From an uncultured Halobacteriales archaeon (GTDB taxonomy: Archaea; Thermoplasmatota; E2; JACPAO01; JAHFTW01): a DNA stretch of 64,000 nucleotides. Positions 3,689-62,485 of the stretch are shown one piece after another. The notes below the pieces were generated by a model. The model was given only the letters and a program-made list of their open reading frames with translations. It had not been told where the DNA came from and did not search any database. The stretch lies in assembly GCA_964627625.1 (NCBI GenBank), contig CAZVJB010000002.1:92197-156196 (forward strand). The letters run 5' to 3'. A program made the position numbers and the translations under genes. Each line of letters begins with the position of its first letter. The stretch's first letter is position 1.

Positions 3689-3837
3689 GTATCATCCGTT
3701 GGACCCCGGACCGGGATAAGCCATGCAGCCGCGGCAAGCGCGCCCTTGCGAATGCCCGCGGAAACCGCCGAAGCTGGGTCTGCGCGGCCCGGATGCCGCC
3801 CGCAACGGCCAAAAACCCCCCCTTCGTCGGCCAAGCC

Positions 3838-4029: not shown

Positions 4030-4056
4030 AATAGTAGAAGAATAGTATGATCTGGC

Positions 4057-27899: not shown

Positions 27900-28320
27900 C
27901 GATGGCGGCCCGGCGTAAGGCGGGGACTAGGTTGAGGGAATAGGCACCCCTACCAGGCGCAAGTCTACATGGCGCGACCGAACCCCTGTCGTGGCGCTCG
28001 GGGTCCGCTGCAAGCCCTCGTCTTACGGTGAAACCTCGTCCCCCGAGGTCGGCGGTGGCGGGAAACTTTCCGGAAGGGAAGCCGAACGCCTTCGCTGCGG
28101 GGACCGGGTCAGGCCCGGAAGGGAGCAGCCTTACCGCAAACGACCGACGTTTGGGGGGGCGCGGGGTGGAGAACAACGAGGGATTCATCTTGCACGGGTC
28201 TCGGGTTGCCGCGGCAGGAGTGTCCCCGCCCGCTAAAGGCTACGGCCTTCTGGCCGTGATTCCACGGACGAAGGATTCCGCTGATTCTGACGTAGGGCCG
28301 GGGCGGGGGCCGTCATCGAA
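27900..28320 (+). ncRNA. ffs: Signal recognition particle RNA (7S / SRP RNA); ends approximate
   Basis: The window contains GGUCAGGCCCGGAAGGGAGCAGCC (28101-28127), which matches the universally conserved SRP RNA helix-8/domain IV consensus GGUCAGGUCCGGAAGGAAGCAGCC. The ~400-nt region is GC-rich, highly self-complementary and has no credible ORF. The 5' and 3' ends could not be fixed by eye. Confidence 0.55.
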
Positions 28321-32384: not shown

Positions 32385-33464
32385 CTACAACAGCCCTGCC
32401 TTCTGCAGCGTAAGCAAGTCCTCGGTGGAGAGTTTTTCGCCGGCCTTGAACTTCTGGAACACTGCCTCTGCTGCCGCTTCGGAGCGCGCCTGGCTCGCTT
32501 CTGAGCGGCTGGAGCCCGGCGGTGCACCCGACGTGGCCTGCTGGTCTTCGATGTCGTGGATTGCGTTCACGAATTCGATGTACGTCTTGTGAATCTTGTC
32601 GGCTTCCATCTTGGAGATGACGAAGCGCTCTTGCAGTTTGTCTGCGGTCTTGCGCAGTTTGTCCGACTGCTTGTAGAGCTTGATCATGGCGTCGTGCTCG
32701 CCTTGTGCCTTCTCGGCCATCTCGCCGACCTTGGCGTGCGACTTCTCGGCCTTCTCCTTCAGTTCGTCGGCCTTCTCGAGTGCCGCCTTGAGTTCCGGGT
32801 CGGCGCGCAGGCTCTTCTCCTTCTCGCGGATCTGTTTGCCGATCTCCTTGAGGCGCTCCATGAGGGCCTTCTCCTTGGAAACGGTGAGGACGGACGTCAT
32901 CTGCTGGAACTCAAGCTGCTTGGCTTCCTTCTTGAGTTTGGCGACGGTGAGGGTGGCGTCGCCTTCAGGCATGCGTTCGCGGCGCAACGTATCGGCTGCC
33001 TTGCCGGAGTCGTCGGCCGTTCGGTTAGCCTCATCGCGACCTTCTTTGGCGCGCTTCACGCCCTCATTTAATTCATCGCGGCGCTTTTTGTGTTCGTTGG
33101 CCTCGTTGACAAGGCCGCGGACCTGGGCGTTGAAGCCGTCGCGTTCCTCGGCGTGCTTGCGGGCCTCGTCGTTGAGGTGGTCGCGTTCGCGGCGCAGGAG
33201 GTTTGCACGGTTCTGCAAGTCCTCCTTCTTCATGCCCGGTTTGGGGCCGTTCGGGTTTGGCACAACCGGGGCGGCCGGGGTAGCCGGCGCGGGCGTTTCG
33301 GAAGGCTCGGACGTCGCGGGCGCATCGGCTGCGGCGTCTTCGGGGGTCGAGTCGGCCGGCGGCGCCTGCGTGTCGTCAAGCAAGTCGGCGTTCAGGGGGC
33401 TCGGGACGGGCTCGGGGGGCGCACTCTCGTGCGCGACCGAGGCCACTGTAGTGGGCTCGCTCAT
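32385..33464 (-). CDS. Coiled-coil protein with a Pro/Ala/Thr-rich N-terminus, hypothetical
   Basis: About 250 aa of heptad-like, K/E/R-rich sequence (…LRRERDHLNDEARKHAEERDGFNAQVRGLVNEANEHKKRRDELNEG…). Start taken at MSEPTTV. Confidence 0.5.
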   Translation of the reverse strand: MSEPTTVASVAHESAPPEPVPSPLNADLLDDTQAPPADSTPEDAAADAPATSEPSETPAPATPAAPVVPNPNGPKPGMKKEDLQNRANLLRRERDHLNDEARKHAEERDGFNAQVRGLVNEANEHKKRRDELNEGVKRAKEGRDEANRTADDSGKAADTLRRERMPEGDATLTVAKLKKEAKQLEFQQMTSVLTVSKEKALMERLKEIGKQIREKEKSLRADPELKAALEKADELKEKAEKSHAKVGEMAEKAQGEHDAMIKLYKQSDKLRKTADKLQERFVISKMEADKIHKTYIEFVNAIHDIEDQQATSGAPPGSSRSEASQARSEAAAEAVFQKFKAGEKLSTEDLLTLQKAGLL

Positions 33465-33636
33465 GATCCAGTCACCAGGATGTTTCGCGCGAGACCCATC
33501 CCCTACATAACGAATATGGGCGCGGCGGCCTTGCACCGTGGCCTGCGTCGCCCGGTCAGCAATCGGGCTACAATGGTTAAGTGCCTCGAGGTCATTACTG
33601 GGGATGGCCTGCGGGCCGTGGAGGTCATGTGGACCC

Positions 33637-35883: not shown

Positions 35884-36002
35884 CCGCGTCACGAAATCCG
35901 CCGGCGCCCCGACTTGCACTCAGGAGACGGGCCAGAAACCGTAAATATGCCCGACGGTGCTGTCAGAAGTGGCACAGCGTGCCTCTGGAGTCGCGTCGTC
36001 AC

Positions 36003-38447
36003 ATGTCTTTCCGTATCGTGTCCCTATGTCTTGCCGTCGCCCTGCTTGGGGCCCTCGTGTCGCCGGCGGAGTCCGCGGTAATCCCGGGAATCGACATAAT
36101 CGATTCGTGCACGTATTCCAATTCGGGTTGCCCGACACCGCCACTGCCTATCCTTCCGGCGCCGCCCATCGGGAACGGGTTCCCAATCAACGACGTGTGG
36201 AGCCCGTATTGGAACACCGCCTCGGCTTATGGTCCGCAGCTTGTCACGCATACCGACTTGTGCAATACGGCCCCCGAGCCAATCACCGTCATCGTGGGCC
36301 AGAACCTGGTCACATGCGTCAACGCACAAGGCCCGCCGAGCCCGGGGTGTCCCTGCCCGCCGACACCGGAGCCCATCCCGATTCCGCTACCCTCCCAATT
36401 GTGGTACTCCACGGCCTTCTGGGATGGTAGCGACGGCTACATTCTCGGCGGGGCCATCGACCTTGACGGCTCCGAAACGAGCGCGGTGACGAAGTTCAGT
36501 CGCGGCATGCCGCAGGGCCCGCTCTACGATCCTCCGTACGAGCCCATCCAGCCGGGGGGGGTATTGCAGTCGGCAGGCTCGCTGCCAACTGCGCGCTCGA
36601 ACCAAGGGCTTGCGTACGATACAGCTGGCAACATGGCATACCTGTTTGCCGGCACGAACGGCGGCGAGCTGGACAACAGCATCTACAGCTACACGCCCGT
36701 GACCCAGAGCTCCGGCACGGCGCCGTGCGTCCTGCCCCGCAACTTCGACAAGATGGCGGGCGCGTGGGCGGAGGGCGCCGCCTACGCGTTCGGAGGGCGC
36801 TACCTCGAGGGCAACGGCGACACGGTCGCCTTCAGCCTGCATACCTCCAATGAAATCTACAAGTTCGACCCGTCCACCTGCACGGTCACACTGAATCCGT
36901 TCAATCTCCCCCCGAACGGGGCCGCCAATCCCTACACGCCGGACGGCAAGCGGTTCGGCATGACGGCCGTGACGGTCGGCACCGAGGTCTTCCTGTTTGG
37001 CGGGTTCTTCATGGATGATGTCGCCGGGACCACGCCGACGGAGGTCAACAGCGGTGCCTACGCGTACAACCCGTTGTGCGGCGTTGCCCCACCACAGCCA
37101 CCGTACCTTCCGTGCACGGTGCCACAGTGCTCCATTCTCAAGTTCACGCCGGCCACGGGCATCGTGACGACCATCAATCCGTCGTTTGCGAGCTTGTGCG
37201 GGAACATGTCCGCCGTCTACGACGGCAAGTACATTTTCCTGTTCAAGGGCGGCAGCGCTTACCGGTACGACCCTGCCACGCCAACCATCATGCCCACCTT
37301 TGCAGCCAGTCTGCCGGTCGGCATTGGCCAACCGCTCAAGGCCAACGACTACAGTCGGGGCGGCACCGAAGGGACCTCGGCCATCGCGACGGGATGCAGC
37401 GCCTACATTTTCGGGGGCAAGGTGGATTTCGCCGTTCCTCCTGTCACGACTGCACCCGATGGCCCCATCTCGGACAAGATTACCTGGTTCGGCAAGTGCC
37501 GGCCAACCGCGGTCTTGGCGCCGACCTACGGCTACACCTGCCCGTTCTACCCTATCTGGTTTGACGCCCGCTTCTCGATTGTGGCGGAAGGCGACTTCAA
37601 GAAGGTCACGTGGAACTGGGGCGATGGCACACCGTCGCAGACGGGCTGGTATTTCCCGCACTCCCCTGACTGGTACGACCAGTACGCCTTCCTGCCGCAC
37701 ACCTTCACGAACGAAGGCAATTTCGTGGTCACGATGACAGTGGAGGACTTCAACGGCTTCAAGTCGAGCGCACAGACAACGGTCCCGATTCGAACCGATG
37801 CCGTCTGCACGATGTATGGCGGCACACCGCACACGGGGGCGACGACAATCACGTATCCGGACTCCGAGTCCTTGGACAGCGATCTTGACGGCATCCCCGA
37901 CGTTTCGGACAACTGTGCGGGCGTTGCGAACAACGACCAAGTTGACGAAGACGCCGATGGCGTGGGCGACGAATGCACGACCGCGCCTGTCGACGAGGAA
38001 AAACCGGTGATTCAGCCAGCCCCACCCGAGGTCGTCATGCCCGACAAGGATCGCGACGGCATTCCGGACGTTCGCGATAACTGCAGGGCTTTGCCCAATC
38101 ATGACCAGTCTGACTTGGACACCGATTTGGCTGGCGACGTCTGCGACGTGGACATCGATGGCGATGGCGTTTCGAATTCAGGCCCGCCCGGCGCGTTCTT
38201 GGACAATTGTCCGTGGTACGCCAACCCGGACCAGTTGGACTCGAACGGCGACGGCGCCGGCGACGAATGCGCCTTCATGGAGGGCGCGTTTGCCAAGCCG
38301 AAGGCGGCTGGCCCGGCGGCGGCAGGCGATGTCGCGAAGCCGTCTTCGCTGCCGTGGGCCGCCGCAACCGGGATGGCCATCGCGGCCGCGCTCGGCACAG
38401 TCTTCCTACTCATGGTCCTGCTACGCCGGACCCGGCGCCCCGAGTAG
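36003..38447 (+). CDS. Paralogous type-I membrane Kelch/PKD/TSP3 surface protein (tandem duplicate of 33637-35883)
   Basis: Same architecture and many identical motifs (AYLFAGTNGGELDNSIYSYTPVTQSSGTAPCVLPRNFDKMAGAWA…, PKD WNWGDGTPS…, TSP3 DSDLDGIPDVSDNCAGVANNDQVDEDADGVGDEC, DKDRDGIPDVRDNCRALPNHDQSDLDTDLAGDVCDVDIDGDGV). TM MAIAAALGTVFLLMVLL followed by RRTRRPE. ATG at 36003. Confidence 0.75.
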   Translation: MSFRIVSLCLAVALLGALVSPAESAVIPGIDIIDSCTYSNSGCPTPPLPILPAPPIGNGFPINDVWSPYWNTASAYGPQLVTHTDLCNTAPEPITVIVGQNLVTCVNAQGPPSPGCPCPPTPEPIPIPLPSQLWYSTAFWDGSDGYILGGAIDLDGSETSAVTKFSRGMPQGPLYDPPYEPIQPGGVLQSAGSLPTARSNQGLAYDTAGNMAYLFAGTNGGELDNSIYSYTPVTQSSGTAPCVLPRNFDKMAGAWAEGAAYAFGGRYLEGNGDTVAFSLHTSNEIYKFDPSTCTVTLNPFNLPPNGAANPYTPDGKRFGMTAVTVGTEVFLFGGFFMDDVAGTTPTEVNSGAYAYNPLCGVAPPQPPYLPCTVPQCSILKFTPATGIVTTINPSFASLCGNMSAVYDGKYIFLFKGGSAYRYDPATPTIMPTFAASLPVGIGQPLKANDYSRGGTEGTSAIATGCSAYIFGGKVDFAVPPVTTAPDGPISDKITWFGKCRPTAVLAPTYGYTCPFYPIWFDARFSIVAEGDFKKVTWNWGDGTPSQTGWYFPHSPDWYDQYAFLPHTFTNEGNFVVTMTVEDFNGFKSSAQTTVPIRTDAVCTMYGGTPHTGATTITYPDSESLDSDLDGIPDVSDNCAGVANNDQVDEDADGVGDECTTAPVDEEKPVIQPAPPEVVMPDKDRDGIPDVRDNCRALPNHDQSDLDTDLAGDVCDVDIDGDGVSNSGPPGAFLDNCPWYANPDQLDSNGDGAGDECAFMEGAFAKPKAAGPAAAGDVAKPSSLPWAAATGMAIAAALGTVFLLMVLLRRTRRPE

Positions 38448-38572
38448 CGGCGTCAGCCATGCGCAAGCCTGCCGCAAGGACAGCCGGCGCTGCCACCGGC
38501 GCAAGCCTTAGTTTTTGGCCACGGATGTCCGTTTCTTGGGGGCAGGCCCGGTCAAGGCGTCCCATAAAGGCT

Positions 38573-39883
38573 ATGTTGCTTGCCGATGCTCCAAGAGCGG
38601 GTATGTTGGGTCACGCAGTTCGCGCCGCCGGGCAGGATGCCGCTCCGCCGCCGCAGGCAATTCCGCGTTCGACGGTCGGGGGGCAGACGACCTTCGCCGG
38701 CCGATACCTGATTCTCGTTGCAGCGGCCATCGCGCTTTGCCTGCTCATTTTCCTCCCAAATACGGCAGACGCACAATGTGCTCCTGGTCCGCCTCCGAAC
38801 GACTGTTTTGCCAGCGCCAAGACCGGTTCGGGCGAGTATTCGAATACCCAAAGCACCATCGGTGCCACGAACGAGGTCAGCGAACAGGTACCCATGACTG
38901 CGGCCGACGCAGTGGGCGCCACGATTTGGTACAGTTGGACTGCCCCGTACGCCGGCACGGCAAGCGTGAGCCTGTGCGGCTCCGACTACAACTCGGTGCT
39001 TGCAGTCTGGACGGGTTCGGCCATCGGGTCATTGTTCCTGGTGACCTACAACGACGATGGGTGCGGCGGCATCGGTGTTCCAAGCCAGCTGAGTTTCACC
39101 TGCGCGGCCAACACCGTCTACCGGATTCAGGTCGCCGGTTGGTCGCAATCGGTTGGCAATGCGAGACTCACAATCACGGGTTGCACGACCCCGCCTCCCT
39201 CGCGGACTGATTCCGACCAGGATGGCGTCGAAAACGATGCCGACAACTGTCCTGCCATCAACAACAACCAGGACGACCTCGACCGTGACGGCGAGGGCGA
39301 CCCCTGCGACGCCGACCGCGATGGTGACGAGATTGCCAATGGGGTCGACAATTGCCCGGATCTTGCCAACCCAAATCAGACGGACGAGGATGAGAACGGC
39401 ATAGGAGATGTCTGCGAGGGCGCGGATGGCAGCGGCACGGTGGAGACACCACCGTCGCAGGAAGTTGACTCGGATCTCGACAGCGTCCCCGACAATGCGG
39501 ACAACTGTCCAGCCGCAGCCAATCGCTATCAAGACGACCTCGATGACGATAACATCGGCGACTTGTGCGATTCTGACCTGGACGGCGACGGGGTGTCCAA
39601 CGAGGCCATTGCCGACGATGGCATTGTCGCCACGTTCACGGACAACTGCCCGCAAGTACCCAATCCGGACCAGTTGGACAGCGACGGCGACGGCAAGGGT
39701 GATGCGTGTCAATTCCTGGCTGGCTGGACCCCGCAGAAAGGCGGCTTGCCGGCGCCCGGAAGTTCGGCCGAGCGTGCAGAGTCGAAAACGATGTGGTTCA
39801 TGGCCGCAATCACGGTGGGCGGCGCCGTTCTCGTGGCCGCCCTAGTCGGCCTTGTCGTCGCGATGATACGCCGCAAATCGTAG
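38573..39883 (+). CDS. Type-I membrane protein with a Cys-containing N-terminal beta domain and four or more TSP3 repeats
   Basis: TM/signal YLILVAAAIALCLLIFL. Domain CAPGPPPNDC…YNDDGCGG…SQLSFTCAANTVYRIQVAGW. TSP3 repeats DSDQDGVENDADNCPAINNNQDDLDRDGEGDPCDADRDGDEIANGVDNCPDLANPNQTDEDENGIGDVC…DSDLDSVPDNADNCP…. C-terminal TM MWFMAAITVGGAVLVAALVGLVVAM followed by IRRKS. The start is 38573 or 38603. Confidence 0.7.
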   Translation: MLLADAPRAGMLGHAVRAAGQDAAPPPQAIPRSTVGGQTTFAGRYLILVAAAIALCLLIFLPNTADAQCAPGPPPNDCFASAKTGSGEYSNTQSTIGATNEVSEQVPMTAADAVGATIWYSWTAPYAGTASVSLCGSDYNSVLAVWTGSAIGSLFLVTYNDDGCGGIGVPSQLSFTCAANTVYRIQVAGWSQSVGNARLTITGCTTPPPSRTDSDQDGVENDADNCPAINNNQDDLDRDGEGDPCDADRDGDEIANGVDNCPDLANPNQTDEDENGIGDVCEGADGSGTVETPPSQEVDSDLDSVPDNADNCPAAANRYQDDLDDDNIGDLCDSDLDGDGVSNEAIADDGIVATFTDNCPQVPNPDQLDSDGDGKGDACQFLAGWTPQKGGLPAPGSSAERAESKTMWFMAAITVGGAVLVAALVGLVVAMIRRKS

Positions 39884-50894: not shown

Positions 50895-51097
50895 TTCCAG
50901 ACAGATGTGCTGGAGTGAATGTATTACCCAATGACTATTAGAACTCGAATCTGGTGTTTTGAGTGCCGGCGGGTCCGGGGTGGTCGCATCGGGGAATTGC
51001 ATGCATCGTGCCAGAGAGGCCGATGCTGGGCAGGGCGTTCCATGGCTACACCATCAACGGGCGCGCTAAGGGCGGTTTCCGGAGACTCCTGTTGACC

Positions 51098-53488
51098 ATG
51101 CGTCTGGGGATGGGAATCGCGATTGCCGGGCTCCTTGGAACCCTTCTAATCCCAATCGGCGAGGCAGCAATCTCATCGGATGCCCGCGTATCAACCGACG
51201 GCTACCTCCCAAGCGGGCGTCATGGGGCGGGCGCGGTGTGGGATTCCGTGCGGCATGTCGTCTACATATTCGGCGGCTTCGACGAGAAGCTCCAAACGGA
51301 CACTGCCGAAATCCTGGAGTTTGACCCGGCATCCTCGGCACGCAACGCGACACTAATCGGCCATCTTCCAGGACCCATGTCGGGCCTTGTCGCCGTCTGG
51401 ACGGGCGAGGTTGCGTACATCGTCGGAGGCGACTCGGATGCAATCATGCAATTCGATCCCGCCACCGCCACGCTCACGGTCCTATCGGTCCGCTTACCCC
51501 ATACCGTGGACTCCCCCGCCGCGGTCTGGACGGGCCGAGCGATGTATCTTTTCGGCGGCACCTCCGATTCCTCCACGCCCGTCGGCACCATCATGCGCTT
51601 CGAGCCCGACGAGATGACTGCCAGCACCCTTGAGGAGACTCTACCTCGCGCTGGGCACTACGCAGCCGTCTGGTCCGGCGATGGCACCGCATACATCCTC
51701 GGCGGAGGCGGAAACGAGATTTACGCATTTACTCCCAACCACGCGCCCTCCCTGGTTCAGCTGAATGTCACCTTGCCGCTGGCCATCGATGCAGCCGGCG
51801 CCGTTTGGGACGGTACAGCCGTGCTCGTCTTCGGTGGTCGGGAGGCTGACGGCAGCCCCAATGGAGGGACGGCTCTCGACACAGTAATACGGTTTGATCC
51901 ACAAGCGCCTCCGTCACAGAGTGTGTCGTATTGGCCGAACCTGCCCGTTCCTGGCACCGAACTTCGAGGCGTCCCCCGCCCCTGCGACAGCGCGTTTCTT
52001 TTGGGTGGCAAATGGCAGACCGCCTCTCTCTATGACGCCATATCGAGGTACGGCCCGCCGCAGTCGACTCCCGGGGATTGCCTCGGGCCCAAGAAATCAG
52101 ACCCGCAATCAGACCCGCAATCCGCGTCCGCAAAGGTATTGCAAGCGGATTTCACGTGGCATTCCAAACCGGTCAAGTGCGGTCCTCGCTCCGTATCGTT
52201 TACTGACACATCAACCCCCGGCGATGCCCCAATCGTCTCATGGGGGTGGGACTTTGGTGACGGCTCGCAATCCGCCGAACAAAACCCCCAACACACCTAC
52301 GCCAATTCGGGAACCTACACCGTCCGCGAAACCGTCACGGATTCCGCGGGAAGCACATCGACGTACGAGACGACGGTCTACGCGCCTGCAAACAAGGAAT
52401 GCATTGAGAAAACTTCACCCTCGTCGACGCAGCATGGGGCGCGGCCGCCGCGCGATGGCAACGGCGAAGCTTCGGGAGACGCCGATGGGGACGGTATCTC
52501 AGATTCGGATGATGATTGCCCCTTCACTGCCGACCCCGAACAGTTAGACGCTGATGGCGATGGCATCGGAGACGTATGCGACGACGACGCGGACAACGAC
52601 GGCATCCGCAACGTGGTCGACAATTGTCCAGTGGTTCCCAACCGGGCCCAAACCGATTTTGATGCCGACGGCTTGGGGGATGTCTGCGACCCCGACGCTG
52701 ATGGCGATACCGTCGCTAATGAAGTGGATAATTGCCTCCAGATGGCCAACGCGGACCAACTGGACAGCGATGCGAACGGTATCGGCGATTCCTGTGATTT
52801 CAAGCAGTCCAACCTATCAAACGAAGCAAGCCAACCTCGCCCAATTTCGAGGGCACGGGGGGTAGCGTCTGTCGGTCGCGAAACGTCCGCGAACGGAGCC
52901 ATTCCCCTGGCAATCGGCATCGCCATCCTCTTGGCCATTATCGTTGCCGCCACCTGTTGGCGAATCGCGCAAGCCAACGCCAGGGGGCCAACAGTCTCCA
53001 AGACGAAGACGCCTCCCGTGGTGTTGCTCTTTAGCCGCATTGGCGACGCCGACCTTCTCAAGCACCCAATTCGCAAACACCTCGTCCAAATCATCCATGA
53101 AAAGCCAGGCATCACGTTCATCGAACTGGTTGCGGCCTCGGGCAAGGGCCGCGGCACAATCGAGCACCACTTGGCGACCCTACAGGCCGGCAGAATCATT
53201 CAAGCTGAACGATCCGGTCGATTCCTGTGTTACTATGCGCGGCCATTGAAGCCGCACGACGCCGAGCGAACCGTGGCGCTACGGTCGGCGTTGGCGCAAG
53301 CCGTGGCTCGTCTGGCCATCCGGCGTCCTGGGACGACGATGTACGAAGCATCCCGCCAACTCGGCGCGGACTACACGGCCATCAAGTACCACGCACGGCG
53401 CCTGGCCGCGGCGGGAATCATCTCGGTAACGCCCGACAATCGCCTGCACGGCGGAGCATGGCACATTCACAACGACACCCGAACGTAG
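51098..53488 (+). CDS. Membrane-spanning fusion: extracellular Kelch propeller, PKD and TSP3 repeats; one TM helix; cytoplasmic tandem winged-helix DNA-binding domains
   Basis: Signal MRLGMGIAIAGLLGTLLIPIGEAA. Kelch-like blades (VYIFGGFD…, AYIVGGDSD…, MYLFGGTSD…, AYILGGGGN…, VLVFGGREADG…). PKD WGWDFGDGSQS…HTYANSGTYTVRETVTD. TSP3 DADGDGISDSDDDCPFTADPEQLDADGDGIGDVCDDDADNDGIRNVVDNCPVVPNRAQTDFDADGLGDVCDPDADGDTVANEVDNC…. TM IPLAIGIAILLAIIVAATCW. Then …HPIRKHLVQIIHEKPGITFIELVAASGKGRGTIEHHLATLQAGRII… and …TMYEASRQLGADYTAIKYHARRLAAAGIISV…, the two wHTH units shared with 59444-59998. The start may be the upstream MLGRAF at 51023. Confidence 0.75.
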   Translation: MRLGMGIAIAGLLGTLLIPIGEAAISSDARVSTDGYLPSGRHGAGAVWDSVRHVVYIFGGFDEKLQTDTAEILEFDPASSARNATLIGHLPGPMSGLVAVWTGEVAYIVGGDSDAIMQFDPATATLTVLSVRLPHTVDSPAAVWTGRAMYLFGGTSDSSTPVGTIMRFEPDEMTASTLEETLPRAGHYAAVWSGDGTAYILGGGGNEIYAFTPNHAPSLVQLNVTLPLAIDAAGAVWDGTAVLVFGGREADGSPNGGTALDTVIRFDPQAPPSQSVSYWPNLPVPGTELRGVPRPCDSAFLLGGKWQTASLYDAISRYGPPQSTPGDCLGPKKSDPQSDPQSASAKVLQADFTWHSKPVKCGPRSVSFTDTSTPGDAPIVSWGWDFGDGSQSAEQNPQHTYANSGTYTVRETVTDSAGSTSTYETTVYAPANKECIEKTSPSSTQHGARPPRDGNGEASGDADGDGISDSDDDCPFTADPEQLDADGDGIGDVCDDDADNDGIRNVVDNCPVVPNRAQTDFDADGLGDVCDPDADGDTVANEVDNCLQMANADQLDSDANGIGDSCDFKQSNLSNEASQPRPISRARGVASVGRETSANGAIPLAIGIAILLAIIVAATCWRIAQANARGPTVSKTKTPPVVLLFSRIGDADLLKHPIRKHLVQIIHEKPGITFIELVAASGKGRGTIEHHLATLQAGRIIQAERSGRFLCYYARPLKPHDAERTVALRSALAQAVARLAIRRPGTTMYEASRQLGADYTAIKYHARRLAAAGIISVTPDNRLHGGAWHIHNDTRT

Positions 53489-53527: not shown

Positions 53528-56500
53528 TTGGTTGGCGTACGCCGACCGGTGTTCATCGTGGGAAACCCAACGCAATCGTCGCCAGCCTACACGCAATACT
53601 CGCTCGCCGTCGTCGCGGCCTTCGTGGGCGTCGCTGCCATCGCGCTTGTCCTGTCGCACAACGCCTCGGCCGGCGGGACCGGGTACCAGATTGCAACGGA
53701 TTTGACAAACGATCACACCGACAGCATGCAGAACGCCGAGCTGATTCGTCTCGGCGCGTCGTCAGACGCAACAAACATTTACTTCTGGCTCAAAGTCGGT
53801 GCCGACTCACCCACTTATGACCCAACGCCCTCCGGCCCCAAAGATTTGATGCTATCCGTGGACATGGTCACGCCAGCGAATGTGCCGCAATATGTCAGGG
53901 AAATGTATACGATCTGGGGCTCATGGTTCCAGACCTATACCGGCTTGGCAGTCGGCAGTAGCTGGGAGTACGGGAATAGTAATCAATACCAAAACACCCA
54001 AGTCAGCTGGGTCTGCAACGAAGCGAAATTCACGATTGCTCGCAACCAGTTCACGGGCAGCCCGCCAGCAGATGGCACCGTCTTCACGCGCCTGATGGCA
54101 ACGGCCCAACCAGGCTTCACAACGCCCGCCGTCGTGCTAGACACCATGGGCAGCAGGCCACCCCCCGCACCCCAACCCGCACCTCCCCCCCGGAACCGGC
54201 ACGTGGGAGGTCGGGCAGAACGGCCAGATGTGGCAGAATGCGCCCGTGATAGGCACCGCCACTGCAATCGGAGACAACATGGTCCGAATCACTTGGACTG
54301 CCACGGACAATGGGGCGCAGCCAACGACCGTGTACAGGATTTATCGCAGCGTAGCCGGCGGCGCCTTCTCGCTGTTTACGACGGTGGGCGCGGCAGCCAC
54401 GTCCTACGACGACGTGAACCTGGCCTCAGGCACCTCGTATGCGTACAAGGTCGCGGCCGTCAATTGCCCACAACTGCCCGCACAGGCGTCGGCCCCGCCA
54501 GCAGGCGAGCCCGCCTACGTGGGTGGGGAGAGCCTGCGCAGCGCCGCCGTGTCCGTCACCCCGGACTTCAATCCGATGGCCCCGACAAGTTTTGCCGTTG
54601 GTGAGCCCACAGCAACAACGCTGACACTAACGTGGACCGCAGCCAGCGCGGATTGCCCGGCCGCCACATGCACGCCAGCCGGAACTGGCGCCAGCGGAGT
54701 GCAGGGCTACGCCATGTACCGCGGCGCCAGCGGAGCCGAAACGTTCGTCGCCAACCTGCCCAGCAGCTCCGCCTGCAGCACGACGCCCTGCACCTACACG
54801 GACATCGACCTAACCCTCGGCGCGACCTACTGCTACTACCTCAAGGCCTACGACGGCTACGCTAGCGGGCCGAATACGAGTCCCGCCACATCCGAATCGT
54901 GCGGCGTTCCAGCAACTGCCCCAGCCGCCGTTACCGACACGTTCGTCGTGGACGAAGATATATTGTTCTCCAGTTCCGCTTGCGCCGCTGGCATGCCAGC
55001 CGCGACGGGCGGACCCTACAAAGGCGTCCTATGCAACGACCAGGACATGGCCAACGACGCAATCGAAGGCATCCTCATCACAAGCCCGGCCCAAACAAGT
55101 CCCGGCGGCTCATTTGCATGGGACGCGGACAACAAAGGCGGCTTTACGTACAGGGCTAAAACGGACTACTGCGGTGGCACCGGAGACAGCTTCCAGTACC
55201 AACTCAAGGACGTAACCACCAACACTCTGCTGAATACGGTCACCGTCCAACTCAACATCGCCTGCACCCCGGTTGCCGTAGCGGATCTATTTGCGGCCAC
55301 CATCAATACGGAGTTTTCGTCGCCGCCATGCCCGGCCAACACGCCCTCCGCGACAGGCGGCACCTACAAGGGTGTTCTGTGCAATGACCAAGATACCGCC
55401 AACCACGCGATTCTGGCCCTCCTGGTATCCTCTCCGGTAAACACGAGTCCTGGCGGTTCATTCGCGTGGAACGCCGACAACAAGGGCGGCTTTACGTACC
55501 AAGCCGCAACCGACTACTGCGGCGTTGCCGGAGACAGTTTCCAGTACCGATTGAAGGACGTAACCGCGAACGCCTTCCTGAATACCGTCACCGTGCAAAT
55601 CGACATCAGCTGCACCCCCAACTTGCCACCAGTTGCCGCCTGCAGCATCGTAACGGCGGCACCCTACTGGCCAGACGAAGTCGTGGCTTTCAGCTCCACG
55701 GGTTCATCTGACTCTGATGGCACAATCACTGCTTGGGCCTGGACGTTCACGGGTGGCTCGTCGCCGGACACGACCATCGCGTCCCCGACGGCCAGTTGGT
55801 CCTCGTCGGGCCCGTTCGCGGTCACGCTAACCGTGACGGACGACGACGATGCACCGAGTGCACCGGCATCATGCGGCATCACGATCACGAATACCGCCCC
55901 GACGGGGAATCCGAATGAGTACGTCGCCATCAAGGATGGCTTGTTGGACACCCTCAATCAAGGCCGTCCCAGCGTCTTGGCCAATGACGTGGATACGGAA
56001 GGCAACCTCAACGCCGTGCAGTTCCCCCTCTGCGCGCCGCTGCCTGCCGGGACGGGAACCATTGACGACTTCACGTACGTGGGGCCGCAGGCGGGCCACT
56101 TCGTCTACACTCCCCCTGCTGGCTTCGTTGGGGACACATCGTTTGGCTACAAGCCGAAGGACGCCTTGGGCCTGGTTGGCGCGTCCTGCGTCACGGTGAA
56201 TATCCACGTGCAAGTCAACCGCTCCCCCGTATCGGCGTTCTCCGCAGACCGGTCCACGACGCGGGTTGGCGAGCCCGTCGTCTTCGGTGACGCTTCCAGC
56301 GATCCCGACGAGGGCGATGCCGTCGTGGCTTGGGCCTGGAGCTTCGGCGACGGCGGATCCGGCACGACGTCGAGTCCCATCCACATCTTTGGCACCACCG
56401 GCTCCTTCCAGGCATGCTTGACGGCCACGGACACGTGGGGCAAGATTGGGCCGAAGGCCTGCCGCACCATCACCGTGATTGCGGCGACTGCAGGCACATC

Positions 56501-57308
56501 CGCACCACCCGCGCCCCCGAGCCAGCCGCCGAGCGACCCGGCCGACCCGGATGCATCCAAGCCGCCGCTCGGCGTGGACGCGGGAGCTGACCAAACCGTA
56601 ACCGAATCGGCGATCACCAAGCTGCAAGCAACCGTCACGGGCGGGTCGCAAACAGTGGCGTGGGTGCAAACGTATGGGCCGCGCGTGGACTTGACGCAAA
56701 CAGGCACGTCGGCGTCGTTCGTCGCCCCCGCTTTAACGGGATCGCGCATCGTCTTGTACTTCGAACTTCACGCCCAAGACGGCGAACGCGTCGGCGCGGA
56801 TGGCGTCATGATTGAAGTCGAATCCAATGAGCCAACGCCGGCCGCACAAGTCGCGGGCGACGCAACGGTGGCGCCTGGCGCCGTGGCCATGCTGGATGGT
56901 ACGTCATCCTCTGGCGGAAACGGCAACTCCTTGACGTACAAGTGGACGCAATGGGAAGGCCCAGCCGTCACGCTCGTCGGTGCCGACACGCCGATGGCCA
57001 CCTTCACCGCGCCCGACGAAGCGGCCACGCTGCGCTTCGCCCTGGAAGTAAGTGACGGCCACTCATCGAGCCTCGCCATCCAGACCATCGTGGTCGATGC
57101 CTCGGCGGCACTCGGCGGCGAACCGGAGCCGCTTCCATCCGCCTCCGTCCCGACCGTGGATCCCGATGGCTCGCCGGCCACGGCGACGCAGGCGCCAAGC
57201 GGATCCAACGTGGCCGCTATCGCCGCCGCGGCCGTAGTCGCGTTGCTAGGCGTCGGGGGGGCTTTCATCGGCCTGCGCCATCTCCGGGCAAGGCCGGAAC
57301 GTACCTAA
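53528..57308 (+). pseudogene. Giant (~1260 aa) surface protein (signal/TM, FN3, tandem Ig-like, PKD and VCBS-like domains, C-terminal TM anchor), split by a frameshift in a C7 homopolymer near 54185-54191
   Basis: Track ORFs 53528-54604 and 54228-57308 overlap. Upstream of 54228 the second frame reads …LPPGTGTWEVGQNGQMWQNAP… with no Met. Removing one C from the ccccccc run fuses …PQPAPPP to GTGTWEVGQ…. Downstream are FN3-like domains (…TTVYRIYRS…SYAYKVAAVN), two ~100-aa tandem repeats (GGSFAW(D/N)ADNKGGFTY…CG…GDSFQY(Q/R)LKDVT…), PKD motifs (WAWTFTGG…, WAWSFGDGGSG…), and C-terminal AAIAAAAVVALLGVGGAFIGL followed by RHLRARPERT. Confidence 0.55.
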
Positions 57309-57647: not shown

Positions 57648-57699
57648 CGTGATTTTTCATAAACCCGCATTCGTGATTTTCTGCAAATCGTGAATCGTG
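57648..57699. promoter_or_regulatory. Three CGTGA(T/A)T repeats (57648, 57672, 57689) immediately upstream of the peptide/receptor/HTH cassette
   Basis: aCGTGATTTTTCATAAAC…tTCGTGATTTTCTGCAAATCGTGAATCGTGtcg. Related to ttCCGTGATTTCCGTGAATTCCGTGG at 32277-32302. Confidence 0.35.
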
Positions 57700-57728
57700 T
57701 CGCTTGCGCCTTGGCGCACGTGAAACCC

Positions 57729-57923
57729 ATGAAAACCACACTTGCAATCGGACTCGTACTGACCGCCACCCTCCTGATGACTGCCCCTGTTGCGTCCGCC
57801 GATGGTGACGACTTGCCCACGGTTGATAGCGTCACCGCGTGGGCAAGCACCTGCGTGGGCATCTGGCCGGGCCACTTCCCCCCGGTCTTCGTGGATGTTG
57901 GCTCCTGTCTTGATGTAACGTAG
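57729..57923 (+). CDS. Small secreted Cys-containing peptide (65 aa), hypothetical
   Basis: MKTTLAIGLVLTATLLMTAPVASA signal, then a 40-aa mature part with two Cys (…STCVGIWPGHFPPVFVDVGSCLDVT). ATG confirmed at 57729. It lies 52 nt upstream of the receptor-like gene. Confidence 0.35.
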   Translation: MKTTLAIGLVLTATLLMTAPVASADGDDLPTVDSVTAWASTCVGIWPGHFPPVFVDVGSCLDVT

Positions 57924-57974
57924 TTCCTTATCCGGAATACGCCTCCCGTCCAATCGGGCCTTGCCCTCTCTTCC

Positions 57975-59447
57975 ATGAAGCCCCTGCCCTTGCTCTTGGC
58001 CGTTCTGCTTTTCATGGCTGCAAGTGCAGCCGCCGCAAGCGATTTCACGTTCGATTCTGCCGCAGGGCACGGCCCGCTCCAATTGACACCGCAGGGTTTC
58101 GCGCTGCTGCATACGACGGCCAGCGTCGATTGGACCCTGACGGCCACTTCGATGCGAATCAAGGTCGTGGATGACCGCGAAGACAACGCCATCCCGGACC
58201 CAGCCAATCCGGACGACAGCCTGGTTTCGGTGTTCAACCGGACGACGACGTACCACGATTTCGCGGCGGCGACGCTGCATTGGGTTTCCCTTTCGAATCC
58301 GGTCTCAATCATCCAGGGTCCCGGCATCCTTGCCGAAAACGTCAGCGGTCAACTTGCCCTGACCACGGTGTCGCCAAGCAGCATCGAACAGTCGCACTAC
58401 GTTATGGCCACTCCAGTCGGTGCTCCCGAACTGCAATACGATGTGCTCGTACCCGCGTCGCTGCGAGTCAAAGCGACCGCCGTGGCGGACATCCTTGGCA
58501 ACGTCACTCTGTACTCGTGGAGCAACGACATCCAAGTGCGGCATTCCGGCGGAGCCTTCGAGCTGCGCACCGGCAAGTACACCGACATGCCGGTCACGCA
58601 AGGAAGCCTGCGATCGCGGCACTACGTGCACGCGTTTCTTGAACTGCGCACCGCCAGGGCCAACCTCGCCATTCCGGCGGCGGCCTTCTACGCCGAAGGC
58701 CTGCAAGTCGAAAGCCATGGTATCCTGCAATTCTCCAACCTGACCGGAGAACTCCCCGGCCCTACGGGTTTGGCGACGGCCACAGGGGGAATCGTGACCG
58801 CCTCGGCGGGGACGTTTGCCCTGTCACCGACTGGAACCGGCATCGGCGGCACTGTACTCATTGCACCTGAAGCCGTCGCTGGCACAACTGCGCGGCTTCC
58901 AGGCACCGCGCTTCCTGGCGGGGTATGGCTTGCGTTGAGCGGCATGCTGTTTGTTGGCGTGGTCGCCGCGCCAAGCGTCCATGGTCGCCGGGTCCGCCAA
59001 CGGGAGGCCGCCACATGGCTTGGGTTTAGGGACGACCGGGCAACAGCGTATAGCAATTGGGCCGCACGCGCCGACAACCAGGGCTGGAACCACGCCGCAG
59101 CCCTGCTGTTCTGGCGGGCTACTCGAAACAGCCCCACGAGTCCGGAGTTGCGATGCGAGTACGGCGTCCTCCTGCGGCAAAGCGGCCGTCCCAAACGGGC
59201 CTTGCGCCAGCACGTCCTCGTCGGGGAAGTCCTGGCGCGTTCGTTTGATCCAGGCTGCGGCGCCCTCAATGCCTACAGCGCTAGCCTGTGTTGCGCCGCC
59301 CTTGGGAAGGATGGGGCGGCGCTTGAGTGGCTGCAAGCCGCAATCGAGGCTGATCCGGGTTTCACTGAAACGGCCCTTAAGGAGCCCCGACTGCGACGCC
59401 TCAGAGCACACCCCGATTATCCCGCCATCGTCGGGGCCATCGCATGA
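57975..59447 (+). CDS. Type-I membrane receptor-like protein: signal peptide, ~310-aa ectodomain, one TM, cytoplasmic helical (TPR-like) domain
   Basis: Signal MKPLPLLLAVLLFMAASAAAAS. TM VWLALSGMLFVGVVAAP followed by HGRRVRQRE. Cytoplasmic …YSNWAARADNQGWNHAAALLFWRATRNSP…LQAAIEADPGF… is helical-repeat-like. Confidence 0.6.
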   Translation: MKPLPLLLAVLLFMAASAAAASDFTFDSAAGHGPLQLTPQGFALLHTTASVDWTLTATSMRIKVVDDREDNAIPDPANPDDSLVSVFNRTTTYHDFAAATLHWVSLSNPVSIIQGPGILAENVSGQLALTTVSPSSIEQSHYVMATPVGAPELQYDVLVPASLRVKATAVADILGNVTLYSWSNDIQVRHSGGAFELRTGKYTDMPVTQGSLRSRHYVHAFLELRTARANLAIPAAAFYAEGLQVESHGILQFSNLTGELPGPTGLATATGGIVTASAGTFALSPTGTGIGGTVLIAPEAVAGTTARLPGTALPGGVWLALSGMLFVGVVAAPSVHGRRVRQREAATWLGFRDDRATAYSNWAARADNQGWNHAAALLFWRATRNSPTSPELRCEYGVLLRQSGRPKRALRQHVLVGEVLARSFDPGCGALNAYSASLCCAALGKDGAALEWLQAAIEADPGFTETALKEPRLRRLRAHPDYPAIVGAIA

Positions 59448-59998
59448 CGTCGCGGTCGCGTGACGGCGATGAGGCGCGCGACTTGTTTGCAGTTCCAACC
59501 CGGCCCCGCGCCGCGCACAGAATCGTTGGCGTCGATGGCCTTACTGAAATCCAGCGGCAGGCCTATGATTTCGTCGTGCTCAATCCCGGCGTGACCATCC
59601 AGGAAACGGCCGTTCACATGCGAAGCAGCCACTCCACGGCCACGTACCACTTGTTGGCCTTGACGCGCCTCGGACTCGTGGAGGCCGTCCGGGCGGGACG
59701 CCAGCTTCGCCACTTTCCCTTGCCCCGCGGCTACTCACGTGAACTCTACCTGAAAGTCTTGAACCGCGATCCCAAGCGGGCCGCCTTGGTGCATTTCCTG
59801 CGCGACGCGCCCGTGGCGGGCATGACCATCAACCACATTGCCGGGAAAACGGGGCTCCCTTTCGGCTTCGTGAAGCGCACGCTTGAGCAATTGGAACGAA
59901 TGCACTTCGTCCATCTACGGCGACGCCACTACCGGTACCGCGTCGAGGTGACGCGCGAATTGCTTGCCGGTCGCGCCGACGACCTTTTTCCCGCGTAG
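59444..59998 (+). CDS. Tandem wHTH transcription regulator, overlapping the stop of the receptor-like gene (ATGA)
   Basis: …EIQRQAYDFVVLNPGVTIQETAVHMRSSHSTATYHLLALTRLGLVEAV… and …RAALVHFLRDAPVAGMTINHIAGKTGLPFGFVKRTLEQLERMHFVHL…. Same family as 2882-3688, 61928-62485 and the tail of 51098-53488. Confidence 0.65.
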   Translation: MTSRSRDGDEARDLFAVPTRPRAAHRIVGVDGLTEIQRQAYDFVVLNPGVTIQETAVHMRSSHSTATYHLLALTRLGLVEAVRAGRQLRHFPLPRGYSRELYLKVLNRDPKRAALVHFLRDAPVAGMTINHIAGKTGLPFGFVKRTLEQLERMHFVHLRRRHYRYRVEVTRELLAGRADDLFPA

Positions 59999-60087
59999 GT
60001 TTCATCCTATCGCATGCAAGATGCTCGCACGATTTTGCATAAGGCGCCAGGCCGAGCGGCACATGGGGCCTTGCGCGGGCACCGTGT

Positions 60088-60330
60088 TCACGTGAAGTGC
60101 CACGGCACCAAGATGCCCCCGCAGTTTTCCGTGGCAAAGCACCGCATGTCGGTGCATTCGGCACGCAGTTCCACGTATAACTCGCTCCATTCCTGCACCA
60201 AGACGCGACGTTCGCCACACAGGGTGCATTGCACGGCAATCGGCGGCTGGTCGTTTGATTCGCCAGCCTCACTTGCCGTGGTCACGGACCACGGTTTTTC
60301 CTTGACTGAAACAATGTCGTACGCCACAAT
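60088..60330 (-). CDS. Possible small zinc-ribbon protein (GTG start), very tentative
   Basis: The C-terminal ~70 aa of minus ORF 60088-60630 are protein-like (…PIAVQCTLCGERRVLVQEWSELYVELRAECTDMRCFATENCGG…). The upstream part is low-complexity. Confidence 0.2.
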   Translation of the reverse strand: MVAYDIVSVKEKPWSVTTASEAGESNDQPPIAVQCTLCGERRVLVQEWSELYVELRAECTDMRCFATENCGGILVPWHFT

Positions 60331-61053
60331 GTTAACTATCTTGTGCCGGCAATGTAAGCCGGGCTGCGGCTTTCTGAAAAACACGGACCAGCCTCCAGGA
60401 CGAAAGCCGGCCCCGCGCGGTACCCCCCACAAATTCCTGTCGCGCGGGCGTGGCCGACGTCGGATGGCATCTGCCGCTGCGAAGGACCGGTCCCCTGGGC
60501 TGATTCTGACCAGGATTCCTTCGCCTTGTTTCCTCCGTTGCGTATCCCGCCGCGCCGTTTCGTCCTGGTCGGCCGTCGTGCCGGGCCCGCCGCACTTGAC
60601 TCCTCGGGGCCCGCGTAGTCCCGCCTGCATCGTGCGTCGCGTCCACCGGCCTTATATGGAAATCTGGAGTCGGCGCCGCCAACGCTAGGCTTGGCATCGA
60701 TTCGAAGTCCCGTATCCACAAGCAATGGTTTGTGCACCAAAGAGTGATACTTAGCCCCGTATTCCTCTTAGTGCTAAACAAAATATTTTGGGTGGGGGAG
60801 GTTCGGAACAGGGCTTCGGGGGGTTCCGCTTTTTTCTTGCGGACTAGACGTAGCGGACGGCTGTGAGGCCCCACTAGTGTGGGGCCATACGGACGTACGC
60901 GAAGGTATAGGCCAGCAAGGGAAAGAGAGTGGAAACACGCGTGTGCGCGGGTTTCAGAAACTTCACAAACAAAAGGAATCTTGTTTACGCAGTCGAAGAC
61001 CACGGAATCATTGGCCAAACCAATTTCTTTCTCCAGTTGGACGGGGGTGATTC

Positions 61054-61737
61054 TCATAGTAGCCTCCTTTGGACCAGTAGTGGTTCGGGTGGCATAGGTG
61101 TTTCCACTTCCTTCCGTGGATCCGGGAAGGCCGGGTCCAGTCGGTCGGGTCGTCCGTCCCAGCGTACGGGTATGAATCGGTTGTCGATGTGTCGCAGCTG
61201 CGTCGGTTTCGACCAGCCGGGCACCCAGCAGGCCATCATGTAGCCCGCGCCGTCGGTTTGCCCGTTGGCTGTGAAGCCCGGACGAGCCGGGAGGGGGTAA
61301 GCGGCGGCGGCAGGGAAAATGCGCCAGAACCGCTCGTAACGCGTCTGACCCTCAAAGAAGTTCAACCGCAAGAGAAACGCCAGGAACCATCCAGGGTTGG
61401 CTTGGCATTTGATTCTGGTCTGGACGAGTCGCGGCGACGAGTTGCGGTAAGCTGCTGGGAGGTGTGCCATAGTCCGCCCTCCATGGCCCGCCCCCCATAC
61501 GCCGCCATCAGGAGACACGGCCCGATGGGGCGGGCTGATGGCACGGACTATTGGCATGGCTGCGCCAATGACTTGGCCATCGACGTGGCCAACGAGTTGC
61601 GGTAGTCCGTTGGCAGCCGTTATGCGGCATTTGGGCAGGTGTGCCATAGGCCGCCCTCCATGGCCCGCCCCCCATACGCCGCCATCAGGAGAAACCACTG
61701 TTGGGCGCGCAAGGGTGGCGGCCATCATTCCCACCAC
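61054..61737 (-). CDS. Hypothetical protein whose N-terminal half is encoded by an imperfect direct DNA repeat (VSPDGGVWGAGHGGR(P/T)MAHLP twice); it may instead be a non-coding repeat element
   Basis: The C-terminal half is protein-like (…NFFEGQTRYERFWRIFPAAAAYPLPARPGF…HIDNRFIPVRWDGRPDRL…). The N-terminal half coincides with the 58-bp direct repeats at 61461 and 61638. Confidence 0.3.
   Translation of the reverse strand: MVGMMAATLARPTVVSPDGGVWGAGHGGRPMAHLPKCRITAANGLPQLVGHVDGQVIGAAMPIVRAISPPHRAVSPDGGVWGAGHGGRTMAHLPAAYRNSSPRLVQTRIKCQANPGWFLAFLLRLNFFEGQTRYERFWRIFPAAAAYPLPARPGFTANGQTDGAGYMMACWVPGWSKPTQLRHIDNRFIPVRWDGRPDRLDPAFPDPRKEVETPMPPEPLLVQRRLL
61461..61695. repeat. 58-bp imperfect direct repeat, two copies 177 bp apart
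   Basis: ggtgtgccatag(t/g)ccgccctccatggcccgccccccatacgccgccatcaggaga(c/a)ac appears at 61461 and 61638, each preceded by cgagttgcggta. Confidence 0.6.
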
Positions 61738-61927: not shown

Positions 61928-62485
61928 TCACGCCGATACCTCCGCGGCTAAAACGGCCGCAATCGTGGGAGCGACGTCCCGTACCGACCAGGCCGGGCGA
62001 GGCGTCACGTGGTAGACCACGCGGGGGCCGAAGGTGCGGCGCGTCACTAGGCCGACGGCCGTCAAGCGGCCCAAGGCGTGCTGGGACGATGAACGCGGCA
62101 AAGCAAGCGCATCAAGAACGGCGCTTTGGAAGACCGGCGCAAGCCGCTCCACCACACGCAGCACGCCGTACTGTTTCGGCGTCAGATTAGCCATGGCGGC
62201 CAGTCGGTTTGCAATCTCAGGCGGCGGCCGAGAACCCGCAAAGTGCAACAACCGAACGTCCTGGCGCGCCGTCCAGGCCAAGCCAAACCGCGCAAGCAGC
62301 CGGACATGATGCGCCAAGCAACCGGTCGAAATATTCGTTGCCGCCGCCAAGCGACGAAACCCCAGACCCGGCTGGGCAGCCAACGTGTCCAATATCAATT
62401 GTCGACGCGGATGTGCCGCCACGTTGCCGGCGCGGACGCGTTCCATCAGAACACCGCCCGACCCGGGCAAGCCGGATGCGGGCAA
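61928..62485 (-). CDS. Tandem wHTH transcription regulator (fourth paralogue)
   Basis: …RRQLILDTLAAQPGLGFRRLAAATNISTGCLAHHVRLLARFGLA… and …ANLTPKQYGVLRVVERLAPVFQSAVLDALALPRSSSQHALGRLTAVGLVT…. Confidence 0.6.
   Translation of the reverse strand: MPASGLPGSGGVLMERVRAGNVAAHPRRQLILDTLAAQPGLGFRRLAAATNISTGCLAHHVRLLARFGLAWTARQDVRLLHFAGSRPPPEIANRLAAMANLTPKQYGVLRVVERLAPVFQSAVLDALALPRSSSQHALGRLTAVGLVTRRTFGPRVVYHVTPRPAWSVRDVAPTIAAVLAAEVSA

Follow-up and report, generated by a model that had tools for sequence, protein, structure and literature searches.

A 64-kb stretch of DNA from an uncultured Halobacteriales archaeon (contig CAZVJB010000002.1, positions 92,197 to 156,196; the whole stretch is hereafter called the window) exhibits a cassette of three open reading frames (ORFs), all on the + strand (57729-59998), that encode a small secreted protein with two cysteine (Cys) residues, a type-I membrane receptor and a tandem winged helix-turn-helix (wHTH) regulator, in that order. 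We propose, with a probability of roughly 0.5, that this cassette is an autoregulated transmembrane signalling unit of three co-expressed parts. The evidence consists of the anatomy of the genes, the folds of their domains, the conservation of all three genes together with their order and coupling, and the presence of conserved cis-elements. We would place the cassette among the systems in which a receptor, together with a secreted partner, controls a transcription factor. Two uncharacterised families make it up, one of them with an apparently new fold, and circuits of this kind are essentially undescribed in archaea.

Results

The coding elements of the cassette are as follows.

57729..57923, + strand: gene of the small secreted protein, 64 amino acids (aa) plus stop; ATG at 57729, stop at 57921-57923
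57729-57800, + strand: its Sec-type signal peptide with an A-x-A cleavage site, MKTTLAIGLVLTATLLMTAPVASA
57801-57920, + strand: its mature part, acidic, 40 aa, DGDDLPTVDSVTAWASTCVGIWPGHFPPVFVDVGSCLDVT
57852-57908, + strand: the Cys loop in the mature part, CVGIWPGHFPPVFVDVGSC
57975..59447, + strand: gene of the type-I membrane receptor, 490 aa, starting 51 nt after the small ORF
Receptor residues about 1-21: signal peptide in the AlphaFold model (signal helix 4-18)
58038-58910, + strand: all-beta ectodomain of the receptor, residues about 22-312 (modelled 23-302), with very long antiparallel strands
58917-59003, + strand: single transmembrane (TM) helix, residues 315-343, with HGRRVRQRE directly after it
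59025-59432, + strand: cytoplasmic domain of three TPR repeats plus a cap, residues 351-486, nine helices
59444..59998, + strand: gene of the tandem-wHTH regulator, 184 aa, pI about 11
Regulator residues 32-87: first wHTH domain, MarR_2/ArsR-like, with the conserved recognition helix S-H-x-T-x-[ST]-[YF]-H-[LV]
Regulator residues about 110-167 (match 127-165): second wHTH domain, TrmB-like, with LPFGFVKRTL

An earlier model-made reading of the same DNA, called here the sequence-only reading, had already described a signal-peptide-bearing two-Cys ORF at this position. The ORF is there, with 64 aa instead of the 65 then counted (the stop codon had been included), and the start given for the region, 57648, falls inside the promoter. 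As the start codon we take the ATG at 57729 in preference to the GTG at 57690, because the starts of the homologues align there and a GTGA Shine-Dalgarno-like element is located 5 nt upstream. The exact 64-aa protein is recorded as a called gene on the NCBI contig. Differences among the short versions of the small ORF fall most often on the third codon position, then on the first, then on the second (510/436/367). None of the models of Pfam, NCBIfam and PADLOC matches the small protein. On inspection of its sequence we rejected a type IV pilin-like (class III) signal, a lipobox and a PGF-CTERM anchor. The mature part contains exactly two Cys, 18 residues apart.

The receptor model, built by AlphaFold on a 34-sequence alignment of the family, exhibits a mean pLDDT (the per-residue confidence score of the model) of 90.7. 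This model bears out the type-I architecture previously proposed, namely an ectodomain, one TM helix and cytoplasmic helical repeats. The repeats, of 34 aa, agree with the TPR fold and with curated TPR models (NCBIfam TPR_END_plus, 37.5 bits for a cutoff of 32). The receptor gene is also found where it had been placed, its distance from the small ORF being 51 nt and not 52. The C-terminus of the receptor is on the cytoplasmic side, since the HGRRVRQRE segment following the TM helix is positive-inside. The ectodomain is apparently a candidate new sensor fold, the model having no detectable solved relative. Since the ectodomain is devoid of Cys in the nine loci examined, the peptide must form its disulfide internally, between its own two Cys. 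We considered the TPR domain as the seat of a metal or redox site and rejected this, the Cys residues of this domain being confined to the closest clade.

The stop of the receptor gene overlaps the start of the regulator gene in an ATGA at 59444-59447, and the regulator exhibits two wHTH domains matched by Pfam, NCBIfam and a PDB profile search; both features had been noticed before. The PDB profile search retrieved wHTH proteins of the ArsR/MarR type. An N-terminal tail of the regulator, RD[LV]F-x-VP-x-R-x-R, is conserved in the closest clade and is a candidate ligand of the TPR domain. TPR is a fold specialised in binding short linear peptides.

Word-indexed searches with the receptor, the regulator or the 34-sequence alignment retrieved two to three proteins each, and an exhaustive phmmer search was needed to reveal the family. 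Against 1.84 billion cluster representatives, phmmer detected 53 proteins (E <=0.001), about 35-40 of which exhibit the full receptor architecture at 22-45% identity. The receptor family is thus real but rare. The regulators form a separate subfamily, rare and found only beside this receptor: every homologue retrieved from 5.8 billion proteins adjoins a receptor gene or overlaps its upstream gene by 4 nt. Organism names on record for members of the family are limited to "Thermoplasmatota archaeon" and "Halobacteriales archaeon" (one metagenome-assembled genome), and the cassette looks like a rare unit of soil Thermoplasmatota archaea. The assignment to Thermoplasmatota draws on the named homologues and on the archaeal signal recognition particle RNA of the window.

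Genomic context was obtained for 11 family members and DNA for ten of them (the window, L002, L003 and L005-L011). These loci, all metagenomic, are those that could be reached via exact-protein look-ups, and their receptors are 22-47% identical to the receptor of the window. A Cys-loop protein is encoded directly upstream of the receptor gene in all ten, with the loop close to its C-terminus or at the very end. A regulator gene comes next after the receptor gene in nine, and in seven of these nine the start and the stop overlap by 4 nt. In two further contigs the annotations place a gene directly upstream of the regulator homologue P0004, again overlapping it by 4 nt. As the same order recurs in related loci, the three-gene arrangement is not a product of chance. 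The sequence-only reading had made its proposal depend on the conservation of the small ORF and of the receptor-regulator adjacency, and both are conserved. Its compact three-gene unit is upheld by the conserved order and coupling, and the functional link that it drew between receptor and regulator is well founded in the conserved adjacency and the 4-nt overlaps.

The Cys loop follows the consensus C-[VIL]-x(3-4)-P-x(3)-[IVFY]-P-[PY]-[VI]-x-[VIL]-[DNV]-x(3)-C, from which L008 and L010 deviate somewhat. In six-frame translations, eight of the 11 sequences scanned exhibit one match to the loop pattern per locus and none elsewhere; these eight represent seven distinct loci, L001 being the window's own contig, and the divergent loops of L008, L010 and L011 were recognised by eye. 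The loop is strongly conserved and the N-terminal part of the mature peptide is variable. The mature peptides are small, soluble, without anchor and uniformly acidic (net charge -3 to -8, pI about 4.1-4.4), and an amphipathic or hydrophobic membrane-active segment is absent from them. The small protein is minimal in the clade of the window (59-72 aa). In divergent loci the loop is carried, at or near the C-terminal end, by secreted proteins of 123-206 aa (genes at 1130-1501 in L009, 4327-4947 in L011 and 60-446 in L010). Those of L009 and L011 exhibit an Fn3-like N-terminal domain (sub-threshold matches), and short tails are present behind the loop in L010 and L011. This distribution suggests that the Cys loop may be a portable docking module.

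From locus to locus, the pairwise divergences of the ectodomain, the TPR domain and the regulator are correlated (r 0.64-0.79). Identity is higher in the cytoplasmic parts (29-59% and 37-62%) than in the ectodomain (22-45%), a pattern usual for sensors, and within the receptor no part is better conserved than the TPR domain.

Three further elements are located upstream of the small ORF.

57651..57665, + strand: operator-like box 1, GATTTTTCATAAACC, an imperfect copy of the palindrome
57675..57689, + strand: operator-like box 2, GATTTTCTGCAAATC, ending 39 nt before the ATG
57700..57723, + strand: leader hairpin, inner stem TGCGCC..GGCGCA (RNAfold -12.1 kcal/mol, z -2.9)

About 90 bp upstream of the small ORF are conserved in five loci whose proteins are 30-47% identical. 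This segment contains two copies of a 15-bp palindrome, GATTTTC-N3-AAATC, in the five loci, box 2 being near-perfect (0-1 mismatches) and box 1 looser. Box 1 is found at the matching position in L002, L003, L005 and L006, and a box-1-like element is also present in L007. The starts of the boxes are 23-24 bp apart, about two helical turns, and the end of box 2 is separated from the ATG by 38-41 nt across the five loci. Allowing up to three mismatches in box 2 brings up a single additional site in the window, at 39864 with 3 mismatches (chance expectation 0.9). A looser box pattern, run over about 115 kb of window plus loci, recurs only twice outside the boxes, both times weakly. The paired palindromes are a putative autoregulatory operator for the wHTH protein. 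The cassette regulator is the obvious candidate binder, the recognition helix of its first wHTH domain being conserved in the same loci. This signature of autoregulation had not been seen by the sequence-only reading.

The 3' arm of the leader hairpin includes the GTGA Shine-Dalgarno-like element (57720-57723). Judged from single-sequence folds and from direct reading of the aligned stems, the leaders of the six loci tested form hairpins of -10 to -15 kcal/mol, the stems of which change on both sides between loci (TGCGCC/GGCGCA, TGCGCA/TGCGCA, TGCCC/GGGCA and TGCCCC/GGGGCA). The hairpin may modulate the translation or the stability of the peptide message. We infer that the transcript starts just upstream of the hairpin; box 2 would therefore be located where TBP and TFB would bind, and it probably overlaps the core promoter.

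At the other end of the cassette, one element was noted in a consensus scan whose output was near background.

59969..59990, + strand: stem-loop with a T-run behind it, where the regulator gene ends

It is a possible end of the transcription unit. Between the three cassette genes no T-run of at least five was found.

Genomic surroundings

The window is archaeal, since it contains a match to the archaeal signal recognition particle RNA (27920-28229, + strand, 162.6 bits); no tRNA gene was detected in its 64 kb. Genes for UvrB, malate dehydrogenase and FtsZ are found in the window and indicate a chromosomal setting for the cassette. An origin from a mobile element or a defence island was rejected: related loci were not found in viral contigs, and neither the peptide nor the receptor matches a PADLOC defence system. 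The regulator exhibits only generic wHTH matches to Csa3/CasR among the PADLOC models.

The sequence-only reading had further assigned the regulator to the family fused in an ORF at 51098-53488 and had based a Rosetta-stone argument on this fusion. The ORF in question is 841 aa long (50963-53488, + strand; the start at 51098 corresponds to Met46) and exhibits a signal peptide, a Kelch propeller, a PKD domain, TSP3 repeats, a TM helix and two HVO_0163-like wHTH domains, with HTH_HVO_0163_N at residues 704-760 after the hydrophobic stretch IPLAIGIAILLAIIVAATCW. By its predicted layout it is a single-pass one-component transmembrane transcription regulator, a class of proteins widespread in archaea (PMC10269533); its ectodomain is unusually large, and eukaryote-like, for a membrane-bound archaeal regulator.

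The family assignment holds in a weak sense. The wHTH pair of the 841-aa protein aligns with the cassette regulator family remotely, though colinearly over both domains (hhalign probability 86.8%, 21% identity; BLASTP E 0.003). In a BLASTP comparison within the window it is closer to two other paralogues, at 2882-3688 (- strand, E 4e-9) and 61928-62485 (- strand, E 6.5e-8), than to the cassette regulator (E 6e-5). Both of these are soluble tandem-wHTH regulators of the HVO_0163 type, the former with a Pro-rich N-terminal extension of about 95 aa, and the tandem-wHTH family is expanded in this genome. The Rosetta-stone argument itself is weak and is not borne out. The 841-aa protein exhibits no TPR domain and no similarity to the cassette receptor, and a tblastn search of the receptor family against the window matched 57975-59447 only. 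Because its ectodomain is unrelated, TPR is lacking and its wHTH pair is closer to other paralogues, the 841-aa ORF does not fuse the two cassette families but is an analogous design, drawing on a regulator family that has expanded in the lineage. Support for a functional link inside the cassette accordingly comes from the conserved linkage and coupling, and not from the fused neighbour.

The window also encodes a run of very large proteins, secreted or on the surface, in which Kelch, PKD, TSP3, Fn3, cadherin-like and Big_1 domains are found (33538-39883 (+), 53528-57308 (+) and 15464-20950 (-)). One of the surface proteins of the window, of 1026 aa, exhibits a TM anchor at its end. Several of these ORFs overlap in the ORF list, so that their gene boundaries are provisional. 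A 498-aa protein with a strong DUF7121 match (144 bits) is encoded next to the surface-protein cluster (32385-33881, -). Downstream of the regulator (60014-61737) only low-complexity Arg/Pro-rich ORFs without family matches and of doubtful coding status are found, two of which (60332-61057 and 61054-61737, both -) overlap each other by 4 nt. The surface-protein neighbourhood of the window is not kept in the other loci.

Other neighbours are found elsewhere. In L003 (447-3580, -) and in the P0004 contigs, histidine kinases containing GAF or PAS domains and a second tandem-wHTH gene adjoin the cassette; a receiver-domain gene is found nearby in L006, and a PAS kinase plus a receiver in L011. The cassette may have cross-talk with two-component signalling, but these neighbours are inconsistent between loci. 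L005 contains a gene for a bacterial-type gasdermin (Pfam Bact_GSDM; 3828-4766, +) about 1.2 kb upstream of the cassette.

Discussion

The autoregulated signalling unit that we propose would operate as follows. The small protein would be exported via Sec and its signal peptide cleaved, leaving an acidic peptide of about 40 aa with a 19-residue disulfide-closed loop near its C-terminus. The loop would dock on the all-beta ectodomain, as a ligand or as a co-sensor subunit, and its occupancy would alter the state of the cytoplasmic three-repeat TPR domain. This domain would in turn bind or release the very basic, co-translated tandem-wHTH protein. Once free, the regulator would bind the two GATTTTC-N3-AAATC palindromes overlapping the cassette promoter, so that the cassette would set its own expression level, and possibly that of further targets.

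Several points weigh against this scheme. About a dozen loci were inspected, and no related locus was found in the GTDB species-representative genomes or in JGI metagenome contigs. The divergent locus L011 exhibits no co-directional regulator, and no regulator is called downstream of the receptor at the P0039 locus. In L009 and L010, the loci that diverge most, no operator boxes were seen, and the palindromes could be bound by another factor or be mere core promoter elements. The peptide-ectodomain and TPR-regulator contacts are themselves deduced from gene linkage and fold type.

Apart from two-component systems and a few membrane-bound regulators, little is understood of how extracellular information reaches transcription in archaea. 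The limited collection of literature searched yielded nothing on this cassette, on signalling by peptides in Thermoplasmatota, or on a peptide or protein ligand-receptor pair in archaea. It is tempting, though decidedly tentative, to see here the first ribosomally made peptide or protein ligand-receptor circuit in archaea: a Sec-exported disulfide-loop autoinducer, an ectodomain of unseen fold, and a TPR domain sequestering or releasing a dedicated tandem-wHTH autoregulator, the whole being phosphorylation-independent, quorum-sensing-like and specific to soil Thermoplasmatota. Whatever the exact circuit, the cassette is a compact and testable candidate (a 40-aa oxidised peptide, a receptor, a regulator and a 15-bp operator), conserved enough to guide mutagenesis. 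Its parts are small, which makes heterologous testing feasible though the hosts are uncultured.

As a special case of our model, and as the sequence-only reading had it, the Cys-loop peptide could be a quorum-sensing-like autoinducer that diffuses, accumulates with cell density, binds the receptor and derepresses the cassette and a wider regulon by positive feedback. In favour of this, the operon starts with the peptide gene, which has a Shine-Dalgarno-like element and a leader hairpin to itself; the peptide, once mature, is small, soluble, acidic and without anchor; its variable N-terminal part could encode specificity; and the autoregulatory operator signature is compatible with autoinduction. 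Known peptide pheromones diversify quickly, however, whereas the Cys loop is nearly invariant across receptors that are only 22-45% identical, and the divergent loop proteins, of 123-206 aa and in two cases Fn3-like, do not resemble pheromones. Moreover, no processing or export genes are linked to the cassette and no further regulon target was found in the window. A conserved docking ligand or co-sensor would account at least equally well for the loop conservation and for the longer loop proteins, and we regard the diffusible autoinducer as rather unlikely.

A second explanation, which we hold to be similarly doubtful, is that the cassette senses the state of the envelope or cell surface. The Cys-loop protein would then be a co-regulated feedback modulator or bait subunit, comparable to CpxP for CpxA or RseB for RseA, whose removal by an outside event, for instance damage, proteolysis, a competitor factor or titration by a surface polymer, would start signalling. 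Such a subunit would account for a strongly conserved docking loop behind an N-terminal part that is variable or modular (Fn3-like in L009 and L011), and for the strict pairing of loop protein and receptor in ten of ten loci. The cassette of the window is also located beside many large secreted Kelch/PKD/TSP3 surface proteins, but this neighbourhood is not conserved in the other loci, and neither a protease nor a chaperone gene is linked. Sequence alone cannot separate a modulator from a ligand.

It is less probable still that no signalling link exists, with the loop protein and the receptor forming an extracellular structural or adhesive complex, the TPR domain serving as a mere scaffold and the wHTH protein being an ordinary co-transcribed local repressor. 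TPR domains are generic scaffolds, tandem-wHTH paralogues are expanded in the genome and L011 is devoid of the regulator. Nevertheless, the receptor-regulator overlap in seven of nine loci and the exclusive co-occurrence of the regulator subfamily with this receptor are hard to explain if the two are uncoupled, and conservation within the receptor is highest in the TPR domain. Finally, a secreted toxin (archaeocin) with an immunity and signalling receptor and an autorepressor, functionally analogous to SdpC/SdpI/SdpR, has a mechanistic precedent (PMC2910880), a secreted single-disulfide peptide of about 40 aa adjoining a membrane protein and an ArsR-like regulator, and a weak match to the SdpR model (E 0.068, 13 bits for a cutoff of 100) in its favour, but it is very unlikely because all the peptides carry a net negative charge (-3 to -8) and are conserved instead of diversifying, and it further conflicts with the lack of a membrane-active segment, the single-pass receptor with its 290-aa ectodomain where SdpI is multi-pass, and the longer Fn3-like variants, which are unlike toxins.

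Comparison with known systems

By analogy of logic, the proposed unit appears closest to the SdpC/SdpI/SdpR system and to the single-pass anti-sigma/sigma modules with a periplasmic partner, and it is a member of neither. Other known systems share individual elements with it. It belongs to described groups through its TPR and wHTH domains only, and there in a generic sense.

Two-component domains (HisKA/HATPase, receiver) were searched for in Pfam and NCBIfam and were found in none of the three cassette proteins. The regulators of the HVO_0163 and HVO_A0114 types (PF24266, PF25212) resemble the cassette regulator in carrying two consecutive wHTH domains within about 160-190 aa. The regulator of the window nevertheless falls below the threshold of both models, with no match to PF24266 and 15.1 bits to PF25212 (cutoff 27.6); three of nine members of its subfamily match PF24266, and five of nine PF25212, at E 0.01 or better.

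A signal passes from outside to DNA without phosphorylation, as is proposed for the cassette, in the transmembrane transcription regulators (ToxR/TcpP/CadC; archaeal ArnR; surveyed in PMC10269533). In the cassette, in contrast, the DNA-binding protein is separate and soluble, and the receptor carries a TPR domain in its place. The receptor thus exhibits no DNA-binding domain and the regulator no TM segment; the 841-aa neighbour, whose ectodomain is unrelated to that of the receptor, combines both.

With the RNPP proteins of Firmicutes (Rap/NprR/PlcR/PrgX) the cassette shares three elements: a peptide, TPR and HTH. RNPP proteins combine TPR (5-9 repeats) and HTH in one cytoplasmic polypeptide, and their peptide is re-imported and binds the TPR. 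The TPR domain of the cassette has three repeats and is anchored in the membrane behind a large ectodomain, with the HTH on a separate protein, and no oligopeptide permease (Opp-type importer) was found in the cassette or in related loci.

Modules of the RseA-sigmaE-RseB type are alike in that a factor and a single-pass membrane protein are co-transcribed, often with coupling, the outer domain sensing, the cytoplasmic domain holding the factor and a small secreted partner modulating the outer domain. They differ in the nature of the parts. Archaea have no sigma factors, and the factor of the cassette is a wHTH protein; its holding domain would be TPR; and the cassette lacks a linked site-1 or site-2 protease. 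We detected no homology, and the cassette proteins exhibit no match to sigma-70 or anti-sigma domains in Pfam and NCBIfam.

The Sdp system of Bacillus subtilis, in which a secreted disulfide peptide induces immunity and an ArsR-type autorepressor is sequestered at the membrane (PMC2910880), has no sequence or fold relation to the cassette. SdpI is multi-pass, whereas the receptor crosses the membrane once, between a large beta ectodomain and cytoplasmic TPR, and no SdpI-type match was found in it with Pfam and NCBIfam. The similarity of the regulator to SdpR (NCBIfam repress_SdpR, E 0.068, 13.1 bits for a cutoff of 100) is of a generic ArsR/MarR-like kind and places it outside the SdpR subfamily. 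The cassette differs further in the two wHTH domains of its regulator, in its acidic and conserved peptide encoded in the same operon, and in its archaeal host. What the two systems share is the set of parts: a Sec-exported one-disulfide peptide of about 40 aa, a sensing membrane protein and an adjacent small ArsR/MarR-like wHTH autoregulator, whose control at the membrane is established for Sdp and proposed here.

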